Origin: Candidatus Magasanikiibacteriota bacterium
GTDB lineage: Bacteria > Patescibacteriota > Patescibacteriia > Magasanikbacterales > UBA922
NCBI GenBank assembly: GCA_003510435.1
Contig: DOMK01000018.1
Span: forward strand, 14,121-78,120
Length of the DNA stretch: 64,000 bases
Direction: 5' to 3'
Positions 5,501 through 59,790 of the stretch are shown piece by piece. The position numbers and the translations under genes were made by a program. Within the stretch, counting starts at the first letter, position 1, and each line of letters opens with the position of its first letter. The notes under the pieces were generated by a model. It ran no database searches. It was not told the DNA's origin and was given only the letters and a program-made list of their open reading frames with translations.

Positions 5501-6473
5501 AATCTGAAGTGGCAAATCGACCACCATCAAGCGCTACCATTGGCCGTAAATCTGGTGGTACCACTGGAATCGTAGTCATGATCATCCATTCTGGTCTAAT
5601 CGCATTCTTGTCCAAACTCTTCAAAAGTTTTACGCGACGAACCAAACGATCACGTTTGGCTCCTTTAGATTTTTCAGTTTCTGCTTCCAAATTTTTAATA
5701 GTTTGAGGAAGATTTAATTTTTCAAGCAAACTACGAACAGCACCCGCACCAATCTCCGCGTCAAACAAATGACCAAAACGCACTGACAATTCTTGATAAC
5801 GATTTTCTGAAACAATCTTCAACATCTGAATATCTTTTAGATCCAATTCAGCACTTTTGAAATCTTCATCCAAAGATTCATTTTTTCGATCACGTTCTTT
5901 GGCAATTTCTTCTATCACGTCTCGGCCTTGTTTCTTGGCATTAGCATCAGCCACGCTCATTTCAAATTCTTTTTCAATTTGTTTTTTCTTAGACTTATAT
6001 TCTTGTTTCAACAGTTCATGAGTTTGTTTTTTCACTTCTTCATCAATTTTGGTAATAATGAACGAAGCAAAATAAATCACTTTTTCCAAAGCTTGAATAG
6101 ATAAATCCAAAACTAAACCAACTTTTGATGGAATAGAACGTAAAAACCAAATATGAGAAACTGGTGCAGCCAATTCAATATGCCCCATTCGTTCCCGACG
6201 AACGAGAGAGTGAGTCACTTCAACTCCGCACTTGTCACAAACAATTCCTTTGTAACGAATTTTTTTATACTTGCCACAGTAACATTCCCAATCTTTGGTT
6301 GGTCCAAAAATTTCTTCGGCAAACAAACCACCTTTTTCTGGTTTTTGCGTACGATAATTTATGGTTTCTGGTTTTGACACCTCGCCATAAGACCAGCCCT
6401 TAATAACTTCTGGGCTAGCCACCTTTAGTCTCAAGGCATCAAAATCCATAGAGTGAATAGTATCGCGTATCAT
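2595..6473 (-). CDS. rpoC: DNA-directed RNA polymerase subunit beta'
   Basis: 1292 aa. NADFDGDQMAVH catalytic motif, N-terminal Zn-binding Cys cluster, bridge and trigger-loop regions. Confidence 0.98.
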   Translation of the reverse strand: MIRDTIHSMDFDALRLKVASPEVIKGWSYGEVSKPETINYRTQKPEKGGLFAEEIFGPTKDWECYCGKYKKIRYKGIVCDKCGVEVTHSLVRRERMGHIELAAPVSHIWFLRSIPSKVGLVLDLSIQALEKVIYFASFIITKIDEEVKKQTHELLKQEYKSKKKQIEKEFEMSVADANAKKQGRDVIEEIAKERDRKNESLDEDFKSAELDLKDIQMLKIVSENRYQELSVRFGHLFDAEIGAGAVRSLLEKLNLPQTIKNLEAETEKSKGAKRDRLVRRVKLLKSLDKNAIRPEWMIMTTIPVVPPDLRPMVALDGGRFATSDLNDLYRRVINRNNRLKRLIELNAPEVICRNEKRMLQEAVDALIDNNARASKTVTASTGQKRQLRSLADILKGKQGRFRQNLLGKRVDYSGRSVIVVGPNLAISECGIPKRMALELFKPFVMAEIIKRELAHNVRSASRFIETNAPEVWDILEEMTKKSRVLLNRAPTLHRLGIQAFKPQLVEGKAIRLHPLVCPAFNADFDGDQMAVHLPLTDEARWEAENLMAAEKNLLKPATGAPVTTPQQDIALGCYYLTKYAEDDTKEVKKFFSNEKEARFAYKVRRITLKERIKVRFDDLAKFPEGDGPIIETSIGRILFNEVMPEKLAYYNETITKKHLAQIIKLLLEFYGQEETAKFLDRIKKLGFKYVTKSGYSLGMDNFGHIAEKKNILIEGDDRVEEVWDQYKDGLLTDSERHSKILEIWTEVKDKVVSFNKEALNKDGSVFAMIDSGARGSWGQLGQVIGMKGLVASPSGEIIELPVKGNFKEGFDVLEFFISSHGTRKGLSDTALRTANAGYLTRRLVDVAQDVVVLDEDCGDNSGEVFTKEQSIDMGEKISERVLGRFVLSDVKDVKGKVLVKAGEVISPEHVRQIEETEVEEVHVRSVLKCKLPKGVCVKCYGYDLSNRELVKKGTAVGIIAAQSIGEPGTQLTMRTFHLGGVAGGGDITQGLPRVEELFEARNPKRKAVLSEVDGTVEIEDADGKVITSPTGRKIFEGRRGQKIVKVHFEGVDEIKVKVKSEDEVQVVDGQKVNQDDILIVRGSSGEEFRAKYEGTVHMDDKQLVLTYEGRHTKEYITPMGYKLWAKTGDEVKKGDQLTEGAINLQELYELKGRYAVQNYILKEIQEIYASQGQRLNDKHVEIIIKQMFSRIYIEDPGETDLLPGETVERTQFMNANTDALKDSKKESAGRELFLGISKVSLSTQSFLSAASFQETARVLINAAITGKVDYLEGLKENVIIGRRIPAGTGYHE

Positions 6474-11036: not shown

Positions 11037-11052
11037 ATATATTATATATCAT

Positions 11053-11068
11053 ATATCATATATGATAT
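11053..11068. promoter_or_regulatory. 16-bp perfect palindrome atatcatatatgatat; candidate operator of the toxin-antitoxin operon
   Basis: Perfect inverted repeat 17 nt upstream of the toxin ATG. Overlaps the spacer and -10 of a TTGACA(rc 11072-11077)-17-TATGAT promoter on the minus strand. Confidence 0.5.
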
Positions 11069-12685: not shown

Positions 12686-12760
12686 CGTCGCCTGACCGCG
12701 TTTCAAATAGTCAGGCACTACATCCCTCCGTATAAATATTTTGTACGGAGAGATACAAAA

Positions 12761-12789
12761 AAACATCCCGATTTAATCGGGATGTTTTT
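12761..12789. terminator. Bidirectional rho-independent terminator; member of the tcccgattaaatcggga palindromic repeat family
   Basis: aaacatcccgatttaatcgggatgttttt: 9-bp stem flanked by an A-run and a T-run. Sits between the cassette and the rpsR 3' end. Confidence 0.6.
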
Positions 12790-12792
12790 ATG

Positions 12793-12810
12793 CCTGCCTG
12801 CGCAGGCAGG
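12793..12810. repeat. 18-bp perfect palindrome cctgcctgcgcaggcagg (GC-rich REP-like element)
   Basis: Perfect inverted repeat. A related cctgcct..ggcaggcagg element occurs at 33948-33968 inside a CDS. Confidence 0.4.
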
Positions 12811-12837
12811 TTTAAGTGTTTAAATGTTTCAATGTCT

Positions 12838-13544: not shown

Positions 13545-13576
13545 AGAAGATATAATTAATAATTAATTTTCAATTT

Positions 13577-13617
13577 ATCCCGATTAAATTCGGGATCCCG
13601 TGCTATGTCGGGACAAT
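13577..13617. repeat. Two adjacent palindromic hairpins between rpsF and ssb
   Basis: atcccgattaaattcgggat plus atcccgtgctatgtcgggacaat. The second hairpin recurs at 33443-33465; the first at 12765-12785 and 34802-34820. Confidence 0.5.
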
Positions 13618-13674
13618 TTTCATTTTATAAATATTTTGAAAATTGAAAATTGGTTTTTATAATTTGTTGTATTA

Positions 13675-22761: not shown

Positions 22762-22784
22762 GTGATATAATATTACCAACACAT

Positions 22785-22809
22785 AACACGAGACACATAT
22801 CACGTAACA
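22785..22809 (-). repeat. Interspersed repeat; 25-nt exact copy (reverse orientation) of 59763-59787
   Basis: rc of aacacgagacacatatcacgtaaca equals tgttacgtgatatgtgtctcgtgtt, identical to 59763-59787. Diverged copies at 27214-27250 and 32891-32920. Confidence 0.6.
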
Positions 22810-22845
22810 ATTGATATGTGATATGTGTTATATGATACGTGAATT

Positions 22846-30180: not shown

Positions 30181-30347
30181 ATAAATATTGGTTATAAATT
30201 TATAATTATTACAATAATATTATGGAATATTTTTATATTAACATAATGTATATAAAAAAACAAGATTATTGTAATCTTAGAGAAAAAATGATAAACTGGA
30301 CATACACATACAAAATATAGCGGACAAAATACAACCTGTATGTTGAT

Positions 30348-31799
30348 ATGTGTATTTTGTATATTGTTAATATGACTACAACCAGAACAATCGCCCACAA
30401 TACAATTTACCAAATAATTGGCAAAATATTCTCCACCGCTTTAGGTCTTTTGGCCTTGGGTATGATGACCAGGTACTTGGGCCAAGAAAAATTTGGTTGG
30501 TATATTACGACCATGGCTTTTTTGCAATTTATTGGTATTATGATAGATTTTGGCTTAATTCCAGTCACCTCCCAAATGATGAGTGAACCTGACCATGATA
30601 AAACCAAATTATTCAAAAATTTACTAGGCTTTAGATTTGTAACCGCCATTATTTTCTTAGCATTGGCTCCAGCCATTGCTTTATTTTTCCCCTATAATGC
30701 TGAAATAAAAATCGCGATTGCCATTAGTACTATTACTTTTTTATCAGTCGCCATAAACCAAGTCTTACTGGGTTTTTTTCAAACTAGATTAAAAATGCAT
30801 ATTCAAGCAATTGGCGAAAATATTGGTAGGATCGTTTTGGTGATTGGACTTTGGTTAGTAATCAAACAACAAATGGATTTCATTTCTGTTATGTGGATCG
30901 TAGTTTTAAACAGTGTGGCTTATACCGCTTTTCTATTGTTATCAGCCAAAAAATACACCCCAATATCTTTTGGCTTTGATTGGTCAATTTGGAAAAGTAT
31001 CATGACAAAAATGTGGCCCATTGCCATTTCCATTATTTTCAATGTGATTTATCTCAAGGGCGATACTGTTTTATTATCTATTTTCAAAACTCAAGCTGAA
31101 GTTGGTCTCTATGGTGCGGCTTATCGCGTAATAGATATTTTTTCTCAGACTGCTATGATGATTATGGGTGTTATGCTCCCACTGATGGCATATAATTGGT
31201 CACGCGATATCAAAGACCATTTTAAAAAATATTATCAAATGTCTTTTGACATTCTCATGCTCTTGGCTGTGCCAATTTTGGTAGCTTCTATAATTTTGGC
31301 TGAAAAAATAATTTTATTAGTTGGTGGAATAAAATTTGTAGGTGCCACACCAATTTTACAGATTTTATCTTTAGCTGTTTTTGGTCTTTATCTTGGGGCA
31401 GTCTTTGGTCACACCGCAGTAGCCATTGATAAACAAAAACAAACCATGTGGATTTACATTTCTGATTCTATTATTACTCTTACTGGTTATTTAATATTTA
31501 TTCCCCTCTATGGTATGTACGGCGCGGCCTGGATGACAGTATTTTCCGAACTCTATGCAGGAATTTTATTATGGTTTGTAATAAAAAAACATACAAAAGA
31601 AAAACTAAAATTAAATACTTTTGGAAAGATTATTTTTGCCAGTCTAGTGATGGGAGCCACACTTTTATATTTAAAACAATTAAATATTATTGTGTTAGCC
31701 ATAATTGGTATTGTCGTCTATGGTTTAATATTAATCTTGACCAAGGGAATTTCTAAACAAACGATTTCAGAAATTATTTCTATTAAAAAAGATGTTTAA
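30348..31799 (+). CDS. Polysaccharide biosynthesis protein, MOP/Wzx-type flippase
   Basis: About 12-14 TM segments; the true start is possibly the Met at 30372. Confidence 0.75.
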   Translation: MCILYIVNMTTTRTIAHNTIYQIIGKIFSTALGLLALGMMTRYLGQEKFGWYITTMAFLQFIGIMIDFGLIPVTSQMMSEPDHDKTKLFKNLLGFRFVTAIIFLALAPAIALFFPYNAEIKIAIAISTITFLSVAINQVLLGFFQTRLKMHIQAIGENIGRIVLVIGLWLVIKQQMDFISVMWIVVLNSVAYTAFLLLSAKKYTPISFGFDWSIWKSIMTKMWPIAISIIFNVIYLKGDTVLLSIFKTQAEVGLYGAAYRVIDIFSQTAMMIMGVMLPLMAYNWSRDIKDHFKKYYQMSFDILMLLAVPILVASIILAEKIILLVGGIKFVGATPILQILSLAVFGLYLGAVFGHTAVAIDKQKQTMWIYISDSIITLTGYLIFIPLYGMYGAAWMTVFSELYAGILLWFVIKKHTKEKLKLNTFGKIIFASLVMGATLLYLKQLNIIVLAIIGIVVYGLILILTKGISKQTISEIISIKKDV

Positions 31800-32700
31800 A
31801 TTAAAACCAGAAACAATTGGAACGATTTTTATTTTACTCGGCAACATCTTGTACGGAGCGTTTATTGTAATCGTAAATCAAACCACCAAACAAATTCAGC
31901 CATTATTTTTTGCTTCAATTTCTGTTCTTATCGCCAGTTTGACTACTCTAGTCTATGCTTTTTACAAGGGTAAATTAAAAGAACTCAAAATACGCAAGAG
32001 TTATTATCCAATTTTAATGACCACATTATTTATTGTAATAATTCCTTTCACTTTATTTTTTATTGGGGCTAGCAAAACATCTGGTATCAATTCTTCTTTA
32101 CTCCTCTTATCTGAAATCATTTTTACTGTCATTATCACCCCATTTTTTGGCGAAACAACTTCTCTTTATAAAATTCTTGGCGCGGGTGGAATTTTTTTAG
32201 GAGCAATTTTTATTTTATATAATAATAATTTTAAAATAAATATTGGTGACATTCTTATTATATTAAGCACCTTAACATTCCCCTTAGGAAATTTTTATGC
32301 CAAAAAAGCCCTTAATTTAGTTTCTTCAGAAATAATTCTTTTCATCAGGTTTTTATTAGGTGGTCTAGTTATTGGTACTCTTTCCTTAATGTTTGAACCC
32401 ACAAACTTAATCAAAAATTCAATTGTAAATCATTGGCCAATCATTTTATTAAATGGCATATTACTATTAAGTGTTAGCAAAATGTTTTATTATGAGGCTC
32501 TGAAAAGAATGGACATCTCAAAAACCATTTCACTTGGTATGACCTTTCCCATATATAGTTTGTTAATTCTAACTATATTTTTTAAAGAAGAAATAACTCC
32601 ATACAAATGGATTGGTATAGCTGTAATGCTAATTGGTGTATATTTCACCATAAAAAGAAAATCTGTTGATCCAAAACTAACCAAATATGCTCACAACTAA
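31792..32700 (+). CDS. DMT-superfamily (EamA-like) transporter
   Basis: 10 TM segments, two EamA-like halves. Confidence 0.7.
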   Translation: MFKLKPETIGTIFILLGNILYGAFIVIVNQTTKQIQPLFFASISVLIASLTTLVYAFYKGKLKELKIRKSYYPILMTTLFIVIIPFTLFFIGASKTSGINSSLLLLSEIIFTVIITPFFGETTSLYKILGAGGIFLGAIFILYNNNFKINIGDILIILSTLTFPLGNFYAKKALNLVSSEIILFIRFLLGGLVIGTLSLMFEPTNLIKNSIVNHWPIILLNGILLLSVSKMFYYEALKRMDISKTISLGMTFPIYSLLILTIFFKEEITPYKWIGIAVMLIGVYFTIKRKSVDPKLTKYAHN

Positions 32701-34174
32701 CACAATACTGTTTACTGTTTACTGTTTACTGTTTACTTATCTGGCCTGGAAAAATTTTCCCTGGGGACTTTATCTTTTCTTTTTTCTTTTACCAACCTAT
32801 TTAATTAGATTTAATATTGGCCCATTACCTACTACCTTATTGGAAGTTATGCTGTGGATAATTACCATAATCTGGCTAATAAAATATCATTCACATATCA
32901 TATACCACATAACACATACCACAAAACAAAATAAAATATTATTTATTGGAATCGCCGTATTTCTATTATCCGCGACAGTATCTATCTTTACTTCCACAGA
33001 CGTTCGTTCGGCACTCGGAGAATGGAAAGCCTTTTATATTGAACCAATAATATTATTTTTAATTTTGATAACCACTTTTAACCCTAAAAATTACCCACCG
33101 GAACAGACTCAACTGGATCAAAAGATCAAAAGATCAAAAGATCAATTTTCTGTCCGATCTTCCGATCTTCCGATCTTCCGATCTTCGATTATCAACCACA
33201 TAATCTTCGCTCTAATTCTATCCGGACTAATTACTTCAGTATTAGCAATATATCAACACTTCACCGGCTGGATGGTACCATACGCCTTTTGGCAAAACCA
33301 AAACACATTTCGTGTCACAGCTTGGTATGGTTTTCCCAACGCGGTCGGATTATTTTTGACACCACTTTTTCCGTTAGCAATATATGGTCTGAAAGAAAGC
33401 ATAAAAAATAAATCTTTCAATCTTTTCCCGACAGAGTACGGGATCCCGTATTATATCGGGACAATCTTTCAATCTTTAATAAAAATTATTCTTTATTCCT
33501 TATTCCTTATTTTATCTCCACTAGCAATACTATATTCAAAAGGTACCGGTCCACTCATTGGACTTGTCGCTGGCATTGGCATATTATTACTATTTTACAA
33601 AAAAACTCGCTGGCCAACTGTTATTTTAAGTCTAATTTGCCTTTCAAGCCTTTTTAGCTTTTCCAGCCTTTCAAGCCTGAAGAATGAGGTTCTTCTCCAA
33701 GATCGCTCTGGTCAAATTCGTTTATCTATTTGGAACGAGACTTGGCAATTTCTTAAAGACAACCCTATTACTGGCGCTGGTCTAGCTTCCTATCAAGAAA
33801 AAATCAAACCTTATCACACAACAGTTAATGGTGAAGGCATAGAAATTTTTCATCATCCACACAATATATTTTTGACTATGTGGATTAATCTGGGTCTATT
33901 AGGTTTAGCAAGTTTTATTGGAATTTTAGTTTCCTTATTCCTTATTCCCTGCCTCACCGGCAGGCAGGCTTATTCCTTATTCAAAAAAAATGAAAACATC
34001 CCAATCATACAATACTTTCTAACTGCTTCTTTAACAACGATAATTGTCACTGGCTTAGTCGACAGTCCATATATCAAAAACGATCTCTCAATTTTATTCT
34101 GGCTTTTGCCAGCTTTATTAATCATGAATTCGTCCAAATCACAATCAGTGAAATCTTTAAATAAATCAACGTAA
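32687..34174 (+). CDS. O-antigen ligase / Wzy_C family membrane protein
   Basis: HHPHNIFLTMWINLGLLGL motif (H.HN....E.G..G of O-antigen ligases); many TM segments. Contains several in-frame repeat elements. Confidence 0.7.
   Translation: MLTTNTILFTVYCLLFTYLAWKNFPWGLYLFFFLLPTYLIRFNIGPLPTTLLEVMLWIITIIWLIKYHSHIIYHITHTTKQNKILFIGIAVFLLSATVSIFTSTDVRSALGEWKAFYIEPIILFLILITTFNPKNYPPEQTQLDQKIKRSKDQFSVRSSDLPIFRSSIINHIIFALILSGLITSVLAIYQHFTGWMVPYAFWQNQNTFRVTAWYGFPNAVGLFLTPLFPLAIYGLKESIKNKSFNLFPTEYGIPYYIGTIFQSLIKIILYSLFLILSPLAILYSKGTGPLIGLVAGIGILLLFYKKTRWPTVILSLICLSSLFSFSSLSSLKNEVLLQDRSGQIRLSIWNETWQFLKDNPITGAGLASYQEKIKPYHTTVNGEGIEIFHHPHNIFLTMWINLGLLGLASFIGILVSLFLIPCLTGRQAYSLFKKNENIPIIQYFLTASLTTIIVTGLVDSPYIKNDLSILFWLLPALLIMNSSKSQSVKSLNKST
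32706..32733 (+). repeat. Tandem heptanucleotide repeat (tactgtt) x4 in codons 7-16 of the Wzy ligase gene
   Basis: tactgtttactgtttactgtttactgtt; unit length is not a multiple of 3. Confidence 0.7.
32891..32920 (-). repeat. In-CDS copy of the gtgttatgtgg..gatatgtga interspersed repeat
   Basis: rc is ggtatgtgttatgtggtatatgatatgtga; 22 of 25 positions match 27219-27243. Confidence 0.45.
33116..33186 (+). repeat. Inverted pair of 8-nt tandem repeat arrays, (gatcaaaa)x3.5 then (cgatcttc)x4, inside the Wzy ligase CDS
   Basis: Period-8 arrays that are near reverse complements of each other; eight GATC sites in 71 nt. Confidence 0.7.
33426..33465 (+). repeat. Two REP-like hairpins inserted in frame in the Wzy ligase CDS
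   Basis: tcccgacagagtacggga plus atcccgtattatatcgggacaat; the second is about 88% identical to 13595-13617. Confidence 0.5.
33948..33968 (+). repeat. GC-rich palindrome cctgcctcaccggcaggcagg flanked by direct repeats cttattccttattc
   Basis: Related to the 12793-12810 palindrome; flanks ttccttattccttattc / cttattccttattc. Confidence 0.4.
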
Positions 34175-34235: not shown

Positions 34236-34520
34236 ATGTCAACCTGGAAAACCCCTCAACTTAAAAGTTTGTCCCAAGCAATAGCCCTACTAGACAATGA
34301 AAAAGATGTTACAAATTTTTTACGTGATCTCTGCACTTTGGAAGAATTAACCGAGATATCACATCGTTGGGAAGCAGTCAAAATGATAAGTAATAAAAAA
34401 ACTTATCGGGACATTGCCACCAAAACTGGTATGAGTACAGCCACTATCACCCGCATTGCTCGCTGGTTAAAACATGGTGAGGGCGGTTATAAAAAAACTT
34501 TAGAAAAACTGGCCAAATAA
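34236..34520 (+). CDS. TrpR-like YerC/YecD family protein
   Basis: KTYRDIATKTGMSTATITRIARWLKHGEGGYKKTLEKL matches the YerC family signature. Confidence 0.75.
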   Translation: MSTWKTPQLKSLSQAIALLDNEKDVTNFLRDLCTLEELTEISHRWEAVKMISNKKTYRDIATKTGMSTATITRIARWLKHGEGGYKKTLEKLAK

Positions 34521-34801
34521 GCCAGTTTTTTAGTATAAATTAATTTAAAGATTAGTGCCGATTCGTGTTAAGATTAGTGTTTATCCACAGACCTACTTGA
34601 CAAATCATTTTATTTGTATTAATATGTTAATACAAAGATATGAATAAAAAAACCCAACAAAATTCAAACCATCACAAAATAGACCTCAGATAAAATTTTG
34701 AAGAAGTTTTATTTTGAGGTCACCTAGAATCGCCAAACAAGCGGTTCTTTTATTTAACCTGAGTGAGTCCGAATGGACGATTTAAAGGGTTTACTCTCCG
34801 C

Positions 34802-34820
34802 CTCCCGATTAAATCGGGAT
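34802..34820. repeat. Palindromic repeat ctcccgattaaatcgggat upstream of hisG
   Basis: Same family as 12765-12785 and 13577-13596. Confidence 0.5.
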
Positions 34821-34859
34821 TGCGGGCAGACTTATTCCTCACTCCTTATTCCTTATACT

Positions 34860-40948: not shown

Positions 40949-41550
40949 AACTAATTCCTACAATTATCCAAGATGAAAGTACTGACGTGGTGCTGATGTT
41001 AGGTTATATGAATGATGAGTCACTCAAAAAAACTAAAAAGACAAAAAAAGTCTGGTTTTATAGTCGCTCAAAAAAACGTCTCTGGCTTAAAGGTGAAACC
41101 AGTAAAAATTATTTATTTGTAAAAAGCATAGACTTTGATTGTGACAAAGATACCATTCTTATTAAAGTAAAACCCGCTGGACCAACCTGCCACACTGGTA
41201 ATTATTCTTGTTTTAAAAAAAAGCCTGAGATAAATCCCTTGGTTGAATTGTTTTCCACAATAGAAGATAGAAAAAAGAATCTACCTAAAAATTCTTACAC
41301 CACCAGTTTATTTAAAGGTGGTATAAATAAAATTATTGGTAAAGTAATGGAAGAAACTACTGAGGTAATTAATGCCTCTATCCGAGAAACAAAAAAACGT
41401 TTAATAGAAGAAACGGTCGATTTACTTTACCACCTTTTTGTTTTATTAAGTAAAAAAAATATTAAATTGGAAGATGTTTTTAAGGAGATTGAAAAACGCA
41501 GAAACAAAAAATCCCGGGCTTCATCTGCGACTACGCCCGGCAAGCCCTAA
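40945..41550 (+). CDS. hisI: Bifunctional phosphoribosyl-AMP cyclohydrolase / phosphoribosyl-ATP pyrophosphatase
   Basis: HisI motif CHTGNYSCF followed by a HisE-like C-terminus. The last ~13 codons are supplied by repeat element R1. Confidence 0.85.
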
Positions 41551-41607
41551 CATCTTTTCTAAAAAAAGACTGACCTGCCCAGCGTAGCTTTAGCGAAGCC
41601 TGGGTTT
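41507..41607 (+). repeat. ~100-nt structured repeat element R1 (second copy R2 at 53926-54035)
   Basis: Conserved blocks gactacgcccggcaagc and tgcccagcgtagctttagcgaRgcYgggtt around a variable loop; outer stem cccgggcttc/gaagcctggg. Overlaps the hisI 3' end. Confidence 0.6.
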
Positions 41608-44311: not shown

Positions 44312-44535
44312 ATTTAGTTTGCAATAAAATTCCATAAAAAAACTTCTAACCATAGGTAGAAGTAGTATATAAAACATCTTCCCCTTATGGGTTGGAATTA
44401 CCACCTTGTCTTAAAGATAGGTTGGTAGAGAGTCATTGGGCCAATTCCCTCGTCTCTTCTTGATATAAATTAATTGTCTGTATTTAGATTATCACCACAT
44501 CATTAAATCGTCAAACAACGACTGTGGATAACTAA

Positions 44536-52522: not shown

Positions 52523-52816
52523 AATTTTTCCTTTGTCCTCCCAATCGCGGCTCTAACAAGTGGTTGTTAAAGAGGAAAAAATGCGAAAGGTGAGGGATAA
52601 ATTAGTGCCAATATAATACTAAATCTAACCTTATTTGTCAATGGCATATATAATATAAGTGTTAATAACATAATTTTAAAATACAATATACACACAACAA
52701 AATACAAAATTGTATATTGTTCCATGTATTTTGTATGTTATTAATCTACACAAACATGGTATTTACACCCAAACTTTGATATAATATAAACACTTTTATA
52801 ATTAAACATAAATTAT

Positions 52817-53881: not shown

Positions 53882-53925
53882 CATTGATTACACTGATTGT
53901 GAGTTGAGATTACACAGATTAAAAC

Positions 53926-54035
53926 AAAAAACCCCGGTCTTTGTCTATGACTACGCCCGGCAAGCTAGATAATCTTTATATCAAAGAATTCAGCTTGCCC
54001 AGCGTAGCTTTAGCGAGGCTGGGGTTTTATTTTTG
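53926..54035 (+). repeat. ~100-nt structured repeat element R2 (copy of R1); also a terminator with T-run
   Basis: accccggtctttgtctatgactacgcccggcaagc...ttgcccagcgtagctttagcgaggctggggttttatttttg. Stem positions maintained relative to R1 by compensatory and wobble changes. Confidence 0.6.
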
Positions 54036-56348: not shown

Positions 56349-56394
56349 AACAAATTAAATAAAAAAACTCAATCTGATATAAATTGAGCTTCTG

Positions 56395-56478
56395 TGCCCG
56401 AGGCGGGAATCGAACCCGCACTCTATTGCTAGAACAGGATTTTAAGTCCTGCGCGTCTACCAATTTCGCCACCCGGGC
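56395..56478 (-). tRNA. tRNA-Leu (anticodon UAA), 84 nt, long variable arm, no encoded CCA
   Basis: rc is GCCCGGGTGGCGAAATTGGTAGACGCGCAGGACTTAAAATCCTGTTCTAGCAATAGAGTGCGGGTTCGATTCCCGCCTCGGGCA. 7-bp acceptor stem, GGTTCGATTCC T-arm, anticodon loop CUUAAAA. Confidence 0.9.
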
Positions 56479-59723: not shown

Positions 59724-59756
59724 CAAAATCCGCTGATCAGGCAGATTTTATTTTTT
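59724..59756 (+). terminator. Terminator of the GC-rich cassette
   Basis: aaaatccgctgatcaggcagattttattttttg; imperfect palindrome around tgatca plus T-run. An additional 7-bp hairpin gtgccgg/ccggcac lies at 59659-59682. Confidence 0.5.
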
Positions 59757-59760
59757 GTTA

Positions 59761-59790
59761 TGTGTTACGTGATATGTGTCTCGTGTTTTA
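59761..59790 (+). repeat. Interspersed repeat copy (tgttacgtgatatgtgtctcgtgtt)
   Basis: Exact 25-nt reverse-complement match to 22785-22809. Confidence 0.6.

Follow-up and report, generated by a model that had tools for sequence, protein, structure and literature searches.

Short tandem arrays with units of 7 or 8 nt, lengths that are not multiples of three, are concentrated in the gene for a putative glycan ligase of an uncultivated groundwater member of Candidatus Magasanikbacteria, a lineage of the Candidate Phyla Radiation (CPR, or Patescibacteria), and comparison with related genomes indicates that this array-richness is a clade-wide trait of the ligase gene family and not of the one gene alone. 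The gene lies in a stretch of 64,000 nt of contig DOMK01000018.1, hereafter the window, and period-7/8 arrays are 18-36 times denser in 95 orthologues of the gene than in their flanks. The original prediction, made from the window by itself, took the gene for a slipped-strand phase-variable locus of surface polysaccharide synthesis. Our best-supported reading, held tentatively and against a serious non-adaptive competitor, is that the gene may be a low-frequency ON/OFF switch built from several slipped-strand tracts. The workings of phase variation were established in cultivable pathogens, and targeted literature searches (CPR phase variation or tandem repeats; Magasanikbacteria O-antigen ligase) returned no report of it in CPR bacteria. 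Should the tracts switch, the gene would be an unusually designed contingency locus in which many very short heptamer tracts occupy transmembrane helices and cytoplasmic loops, a layout conserved clade-wide; the surface glycan would then appear to be under fluctuating selection, for which phage or host attachment is a plausible cause. If they do not, an enrichment so specific in period and gene still needs a mechanism, and the locus would be a natural case of protein segments repeatedly rewritten by frame-breaking repeats and by in-frame palindromes resembling repetitive extragenic palindromic (REP) sequences.

Frame-Breaking Arrays in the Window Gene

Tandem arrays were called with Tandem Repeats Finder (TRF), and the 64 kb were scanned separately for perfect repeats. 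Repeats were placed on the protein by alignment with 15 homologues and by codon alignment with the relatives L003, L131 and L132. Sequence, TRF and Pfam agree that the open reading frame (ORF) is intact and holds the 7-nt and 8-nt tracts reported for it; in all, the gene has some eight arrays, and in-frame GC-rich palindromes interrupt two of these (Table 1). The (TACTGTT), (GATCAAAA) and (TCCGATCT) arrays are the only perfect repeats in the 64 kb with at least three copies and a period of at least 5. Under a third-order Markov model the expected number per 64 kb is 0.23, and none of 100 simulations gave more than 2. Gain or loss of one unit shifts the frame, as had been claimed, and leaves products of 36-42 aa for the heptamer tract or 174-238 aa for the octamer tracts; a change of three units keeps the frame.

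The start codon lies upstream of the first of these non-triplet tracts. The stop codon of the EamA transporter gene overlaps the ligase start by 14 nt (ATGCTCACAACTAA), an arrangement shared by L003, the nearest relative and a syntenic one, and the residues that the heptamer tract specifies (..TVYCLLFT.., in the first transmembrane segment, TM1) are conserved in the closest homologues. The heptamer tract is therefore translated, and a start downstream of it, the case that would have undone the original prediction, can be dismissed.

Three other repeat families ascribed to the ORF are also real: the CACATAA-type array, the 36-nt palindrome and the palindrome-split (TTCCTTA) array. The first of them has family members between genes of the window, in the arrays at 22770-22842 and 59756-59785, and at its position L003 carries another heptamer, (ATCACTG)x3, of equal length. 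The N-terminal tract of L003 likewise equals the (TACTGTT) tract in length, with substitutions in it.

The two octamer arrays, described earlier as an inverted pair, are indeed inverted to each other, but no more than 6 of the 8 positions of a unit are complementary between the arms, and the predicted hairpin is weak, with a DNA fold of -12.3 kcal/mol (z = -1.76) that 12 of 200 shuffles equal. Codon alignment shows the pair to be an insertion of 27-28 codons in loop 135-162, which is of the same length but degenerate in L131 and L132 (about 60% amino-acid identity) and missing from L003. The inverted-pair architecture recurs in L035, where GAAGATTA faces an arm resembling TAATCTTC, and in L044, where GAAACTG faces TAGTTTC; most arrays of the family are single rather than paired. 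Eight GATC sites fall within 33116-33183 (68 nt), the number given in the original prediction; over the whole window GATC is ordinary, with 153 sites observed and 163 expected.

Table 1. Features of the ligase gene in the window, and of the gene and palindrome associated with its orthologues in related loci (L numbers; coordinates within each locus).
Feature	Position	Strand	Remarks
Ligase ORF, WaaL/Wzy_C-family polytopic membrane protein	32687-34174	+	intact; ATG 32687, stop 34174, 495 aa
(TACTGTT)x4.6	32706-32737	+	TRF 100% matches; TM1 residues 7-17 (ILFTVYCLLFT)
CACATAA/CACATAC array, imperfect, period 7	32892-32928	+	TRF x5.3, 76%; as period 14, 86%; loop aa 69-80
(GATCAAAA)x3.8	33116-33145	+	TRF 100%; left arm of inverted pair, loop aa 135-162
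(TCCGATCT)x4.2	33153-33186	+	TRF 100%; right arm of inverted pair
(AATCTTTC)x3.9, split	33411-33425 + 33462-33477	+	loop aa 236-258
36-nt in-frame GC-rich palindrome (TCCCGACAGAGTACGGGATCCCGTATTATATCGGGA)	33426-33461	+	splits (AATCTTTC) array; absent from L003
(TTATTCC)x3.7	33486-33511	+	TRF 94% matches; TM8 core (ILYSLFLIL)
(GCCTTTCAA)x4.4, imperfect, period 9	33639-33678	+	TRF; frame-preserving unit; TM10
(TTCCTTA)x4.4, split	33931-33947 + 33969-33982	+	loop aa 421-439
21-nt in-frame GC-rich palindrome (CCTGCCTCACCGGCAGGCAGG)	33948-33968	+	splits (TTCCTTA) array; absent from L003
RAYT-like genes in relatives	L044:5700-6395; L126:3206-3904; L128:2783-3364; L012:5358-5969; L005:5280-5840; L021:5543-6106; L034:5241-5918		
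GTAGAGACGCATTGCAATGCGTCTCTAC-core palindrome in relatives	L044:6066-6105; L012:5679-5706; L128:3095-3122; L005:5556-5585; L021:5830-5859 + 6122-6149; L034:5518-5700		four copies in L034

Arrays across the Ligase Gene Family

Related loci comprised 67 orthologous loci from species-representative genomes, 55 from metagenomes and a few obtained by exact protein look-ups, and array density was determined with TRF on 95 unique ligase genes (127 kb) and 606 kb of their flanks. Period-7 arrays number 104 in the genes and 14 in the flanks, or 82 versus 2.3 per 100 kb; the corresponding counts are 23 and 6 for period 8, and 32 and 12 for period 14, and no enrichment over the flanks is seen at periods 6, 10, 12 and 15. 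The count of perfect period-7 repeats with at least three copies, made on the 68 orthologous loci of the first scan of the genome collection, which include a few identical duplicates, gave 40 in the ligase gene (96 kb) and 1 in the flanks (444 kb). At least one array of 7 or 8 nt is present in 46 of the 95 ligase genes, with up to six per gene, 2.9-5.9 copies per array (median 4.1) and lengths of 20-41 nt. The few arrays of the flanks are mostly intergenic in appearance, several of them abutting the ligase gene, and the upstream flippase and EamA genes, which encode multi-pass membrane proteins in the same operon, hold none.

The array sites recur across lineages, in TM1, in loops 69-80, 127-165 and 237-258, in TM8 (259-277) and in loop 415-437. 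They are variable in length and poorly conserved, the loops accepting 20-45 extra residues. At the TM8 site about 40 of the 95 orthologues are heptamer-periodic in one register, with lineage-specific units that are uniform within a gene and one or two substitutions apart between lineages (CTTATTC, CTTGTAT, CTTATAT, CTTGTTA, CTAGTTT, CTATTTG); in L025 two unit variants stand side by side, as if the gene were half-way between them. Over all 95 genes the self-identity of this site is 0.48 at lag 7, compared with 0.29-0.34 at lags 5, 6, 8, 9 and 10, and in the clearest cases the within-gene identity at lag 7 (0.83) exceeds the positional identity between genes (0.65). Units that are uniform in each gene and yet different across species require ongoing gain and loss of units or their repeated rebirth, and such uniformity would imply appreciable slippage. 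Synonymous positions, compared between species in bins of protein identity, are no more conserved at array sites than in the rest of the gene; the arrays are thus renewed and not preserved. An apparent conservation of arrays at the DNA level across species (codon identity 0.75 versus 0.45) was discarded, the grouping by unit being circular and the unbiased test giving no excess. Between L004 and L073, which share 86% nucleotide identity, arrays have been gained, lost or replaced, and the array sites differ wholesale even between proteins at least 90% identical (P0031 and P0130; P0039 and P0132).

The Gene Product and Its Topology

The Wzy_C domain (Pfam PF04932) is matched by residues 273-411 of the protein (E 3e-24; 85.8 bits, cut-off 31.7). 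The sequence is 100% identical to one protein from a metagenome-assembled genome of Candidatus Magasanikbacteria, and several hundred homologues come likewise from this group. WaaL 7TPG is the sole sequence match in the Protein Data Bank (PDB), very distant at a phmmer E of 0.094 and aligned to loop 341-427. The same structure, as 7tpg_B, is the top-ranked and sole meaningful Foldseek match of a modest AlphaFold model (pLDDT 61.6, pTM 0.62), with E 3e-3 and a TM-score of 0.40/0.47. By family, the product is best explained as a WaaL/Wzy_C-type membrane glycan ligase or polymerase that is probably functional. The label of O-antigen ligase (Wzy) attached to it earlier holds at the level of the Wzy_C/WaaL family and as a family name only. 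A lipopolysaccharide O-antigen is not expected in a CPR bacterium. The association with surface structures comes from this family assignment together with a Polysacc_synt flippase gene nearby. That gene heads a run that continues with the EamA transporter and ends with the ligase, followed by a small TrpR-like gene and then by hisG and hisD.

Hydropathy indicates about 12-13 membrane segments, and a large loop at residues 332-392 (RSGQIRL...HHPHN) is conserved. If this loop is extracytoplasmic, as in WaaL, the K/R-rich and poorly conserved loops 69-80, 135-162, 236-258 and 421-439, which bear arrays, are predicted to be cytoplasmic. Antigenic variation, that is, diversification of exposed loops, is consequently an unlikely main driver of the variability, since hydropathy, the positive-inside rule and the WaaL match all place the variable loops on the inner side of the membrane.

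Palindromes and RAYT-Like Genes

Deleting the 36-nt palindrome from the window gene recovers a perfect 31-nt (AATCTTTC)x3.9 array, and L035 has (AATCTTTC)x3.8 in the equivalent loop; deleting the 21-nt palindrome recovers a perfect (TTCCTTA)x4.4, which is the uninterrupted 31-nt array of L003. Both palindromes are members of small mobile families. The larger one has the family form CCCG..CGGGATCCCG..CGGG, with further copies at 13579-13616 of the window (intergenic, ssb/rpsF) and in L034, L065 and L127; those of L065 and L127 also sit within heptamer arrays of the ligase gene, and the L127 copy is missing from the near-identical L044 and L126. The smaller one has the form CCTGCC..GGCAGG, with relatives at 12793-12810 of the window, beside an octamer array, and in six other unique loci, including L004, L033, L041, L058 and L073. 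We considered whether arrays originate as target-site duplications or footprints, one unit for each insertion and excision of a palindrome. The comparison of L127 with L044 and L126 does not support this, since the array exists at the empty site and the insertion is accompanied by no new duplication.

Two intergenic clusters of the window contain members of these families. The one at 12759-12835 consists of a CCCGATTTAATCGGG hairpin, the palindrome CCTGCCTGCGCAGGCAGG and a (GTTTAAAT)x3.2 array; in the other, at 13552-13652, the CCCG..CGGGATCCCG..CGGG copy at 13579-13616 is flanked by short repeats of the CAATTT type.

In 12 unique loci of relatives a gene resembling those for REP-associated tyrosine transposases (RAYTs) lies directly downstream of the ligase or of the TrpR-like gene. 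Such genes score 26.7-34.1 bits against Pfam Y1_Tnp (cut-off 23), and match the NCBIfam model REP_Tyr_transpos (REP-associated tyrosine transposase) with an E of 3e-18, below the cut-off of that model. RAYTs are single-copy HUH enzymes thought to mobilise REP and REPIN palindromes (PMC3337134). A third palindrome, perfect, of 20-40 nt and with the core GTAGAGACGCATTGCAATGCGTCTCTAC, is found mostly in frame inside the RAYT-like ORF, where it encodes ..VETHCNA.., in one to four copies per locus (Table 1). In the window no RAYT gene was found by tblastn, the corresponding gap being 34521-34859. Array-bearing ligase genes are over-represented among RAYT-positive loci, a comparison confounded by phylogeny. 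In L009 the gap between the two parts of a split RAYT-like gene holds a hexamer array, (TAATGG)x10.2, at 5552-5612.

Switching or Turnover

The switch that we favour, with the reserve stated at the outset, would work as follows. Replication slippage would create arrays of about four 7- or 8-nt units in permissive segments (TM1, TM8 and the four predicted cytoplasmic loops) and would keep them uniform. As neither 7 nor 8 divides by three, a slip by a single unit would truncate the ligase near its N-terminus or in mid-gene, and the reverse slip would restore it; in the octamer pair the frame might also be regained by a compensating slip in the opposite arm. A cell-surface glycan function would thereby be governed, with ON as the majority state in every sampled population. 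Frequent slippage, OFF variants in populations and selection for switching are all things that we infer. The attraction of slipped-strand switching, tentative as it is, is that it could account together for gene specificity, for the bias towards 7 and 8 nt and for the uniformity of units within genes. A bias towards frame-breaking units within an intact ORF is what selection for mutability would predict, and the flanks are free of such a bias towards 7. Arrays of about four units arise only through out-of-frame states or repeated rebirth. Support that is strong, though indirect, for live repeats of the slippage type, retained to an unusual degree, comes from the comparative data.

A number of observations weigh against a switch. 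No frameshifted allele at an array occurs in the 123 related loci, all of which gave single-frame tblastn matches over the region of the window protein. The comparison of repeat counts among related strains, suggested with the original prediction, turned out negative: close pairs show no differences of one or two units, and between close relatives no unit difference other than a multiple of three was seen in assemblies. Tract lengths are identical in L044, L126 and L127 (>97% identical), and an array-bearing orthologue, P0010, recurs in 18 contigs with its protein unchanged, the top matches including none of a different length. In L003, the nearest relative, the N-terminal tract is equally long but already imperfect. 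L001 and L002, two other assemblies of the window's population, are identical to the window over 7.5 kb; as they possibly derive from the same sample, they carry no information on variation. Among sampled genomes, a canonical contingency locus is frequently found in the OFF state. Selection for mutability usually lengthens tracts, and here the tracts are short next to those of known contingency loci, never exceeding 5.9 units although the loops would accept far more residues. The arrays lie in predicted cytoplasmic loops and transmembrane cores, which are not themselves surface-exposed. Frame-neutral period-9 arrays are enriched about ninefold (18 in the ligase genes, 10 in the flanks), a sign that duplication is favoured more generally too. 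What is shown of the predicted phase variation comprises the frame-breaking arrays, their enrichment by gene and period in the family, the rapid turnover of units that stay uniform in each gene, the strictly in-frame state of the arrays and the effect that one unit more or less would have; OFF or one-unit alleles are absent from the assemblies.

Some further variants and candidates were considered. The sole difference in unit number seen is one of exactly three octamer units, in the near-identical pair L035/L067. L096 differs from L094 and L037 by a frameshifting 22-nt deletion just 3' of the N-terminal (TTCTACA) array, outside the repeat, which suggests that loss of ligase function may be tolerated. 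The contig of L064 begins within a ligase heptamer array, which, like the L035/L067 pair and the L096 deletion, speaks for a switch. L114 differs from L115 and L116 by a 16-nt tandem duplication across the start codon. Three short protein calls (P0021, P0032, P0120) were rejected as OFF alleles, the genes being intact and the shortness a matter of the gene-caller's choice of start. A strain cluster of 457-aa proteins (P0042-P0058), with point substitutions only, was not used as evidence on tract stability. The metagenome scan for strain-level variants of the window's species yielded only relatives of at most 61% identity.

We regard it as nearly as likely that arrays and palindromes turn over non-adaptively, as by-products of a lineage-specific mutational or selfish process (hairpin elements of REP/RAYT type, slippage, template switching), accumulating in segments that tolerate them, with in-frame outcomes surviving and no useful rate of switching. 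Much of what speaks against a switch speaks for such turnover: every allele is in frame at the arrays and no one-unit polymorphism was found in the assemblies; the tracts are short and confined to length-variable, poorly conserved sites that are predicted to be cytoplasmic or fall in TM1 and TM8; and frame-neutral period-9 arrays are enriched too. To this may be added the palindromes that interrupt two arrays of the window gene and further ones of L065 and L127, the L127 copy being absent from the near-identical L044 and L126, the RAYT-like gene adjoining the ligase region in 12 unique loci, the wholesale swaps of variable segments between proteins at least 90% identical and the lack of extra synonymous conservation at array sites. 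In-frame palindromic inserts are moreover known from the Rickettsia palindromic elements (RPEs; PMC10969869). Turnover of this kind leaves unexplained, however, why 7/8-nt units outnumber those of 6, 9 and 12 nt in an ORF under purifying selection and why the flippase and EamA neighbours are free of arrays, and it gives no account of how arrays of about four units arise without out-of-frame intermediates. A RAYT gene is not found in the window, and HUH Y1 transposases are not known to make target duplications. A related proposal, which we consider improbable, is a localized, gene-targeted process of repeat-writing in Magasanikbacteria that repeatedly places arrays of about four 7-9-nt units, and inverted pairs of such arrays, in those parts of the ligase gene that permit them; the RAYT-like HUH nuclease encoded next door and the palindromes that insert into arrays may have a part in it, and such a process, if true, would be an undescribed site-restricted mutagenesis in CPR bacteria, unlike ordinary slippage with selection.

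A role at the level of nucleic acid, in which the arrays, and the inverted pairs above all, would form structures in DNA or mRNA or bind proteins (with effects on pausing or mRNA stability, or as a GATC methylation cluster) and the coding sequence would merely accommodate them, is comparably doubtful. Inverted pairs do recur, both in the ligase family (33116-33186 of the window; L035; L044) and between genes of the window (22770-22842, 30297-30371, 52678-52745), and eight GATC sites fall within 68 nt. Against this stand the weakness of the hairpin, which led us to reject a hairpin function for the octamer pair, the prevalence of single arrays and the lack of conservation of unit sequences across species, GATC included (GATT in L132). 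With GATC of ordinary frequency in the window and the site not conserved in L132, avoidance of GATC or a special Dam-type biology was dropped as well, and so was a known RNA family, since Rfam gives no match at the locus. Chance or composition, in an AT-rich gene rich in transmembrane helices, has in its favour the genome's GC content of 30-40% and the T-rich codons of such helices; the Markov simulations and the enrichment over flanks holding other genes of the same genomes rich in transmembrane segments exclude it for practical purposes. An assembly artefact is equally far-fetched, the arrays being seen across different assemblers and samples and, at 20-41 nt, being far shorter than typical assembler k-mer sizes.

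Other Elements of the Window

Inverted pairs of heptamer arrays, with about four units, are also found between genes, at 22770-22842, 30297-30371, 52678-52745, 59756-59785 and 11037-11068. They are of the CACATAA/TGATATG and AAAATAC/GTATTTT types and stand mostly just upstream of operons, one of them before the flippase-EamA-ligase run; a role as promoter or operator elements is conceivable, as is a REPIN-like nature. The spacer between the trpR-like gene and hisG (34521-34859; L003:4631-4985) is conserved. Its features are a sigma-70-like motif, TTGACA-17-TATTAAT, a short ORF in which two His codons are adjacent (MNKKTQQNSNHHKI), two hairpins, one terminator-like and one of CCCGATTAAATCGGG, and, directly before the hisG ATG, an array of the CTTATTC type. 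It may be a his attenuator. The sole Rfam match near it is a sub-threshold Thr_leader at 34411-34534 (27.6 bits, threshold 55), mostly within the TrpR-like ORF. Two copies of a GC-rich element some 105 nt long (41502-41607 and 53922-54027), 80-91% identical and 12.4 kb apart, each lie between convergent gene ends; the element has no Rfam or tRNA match and may be REP-like or serve as a bidirectional terminator. Rfam and ARAGORN give just two features in the window, a SAM riboswitch at 44371-44469 (minus strand, 64.5 bits) and a tRNA-Leu(TAA) at 56394-56478 (minus strand).

Comparison with Known Systems

Among the classical contingency loci, the lic and lgt genes of Haemophilus carry tetranucleotide repeats. 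A precedent is the Neisseria pilin-glycosylation gene pglE, whose phase variation is under the control of a heptanucleotide repeat (PMC7157529). The ligase gene resembles such simple-sequence loci in its perfect non-triplet repeats within a surface-glycan ORF, in their specificity to the gene, in the uniformity of the units of each array and in the truncation of the product by a change of one unit. Unlike loci with one long 5' tract, it has up to six tracts of 3-6 units spread over transmembrane helices and cytoplasmic loops, shows no ON/OFF or one-unit polymorphism in assemblies, and has its units replaced between species while the position and length of the tract stay fixed.

The two inserts in the window gene, like the RPEs (PMC10969869), are dispersed palindromes that stand in frame at positions compatible with function. 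RPEs measure about 100-150 bp and encode a conserved peptide, whereas these inserts are of 21 and 36 nt and lie inside tandem arrays; the 7/8-nt arrays themselves are not explained by RPEs. With the REP/REPIN-RAYT systems (PMC3116915, PMC3337134) the locus shares a few dispersed, short, GC-rich palindromes, in two families with two window copies each and further copies in other species, one of which varies in presence between near-identical loci, as well as a single-copy RAYT-like HUH gene beside the ligase in relatives. REPs are extragenic by definition, whereas the palindromes of the ligase locus are found in frame inside genes, even the RAYT-like gene itself; and tandem arrays of 7-8 nt are not known from REP systems, unlike the ligase gene, which is rich in them in a window that has no RAYT gene. 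As for the product, the ligase is very distant from WaaL (PDB 7TPG), both in sequence and in the fold of its mediocre model, and belongs to a CPR host, but it has in common with that protein and the Wzy_C superfamily the Wzy_C domain and the large, presumably extracytoplasmic loop with its conserved HHPHN.

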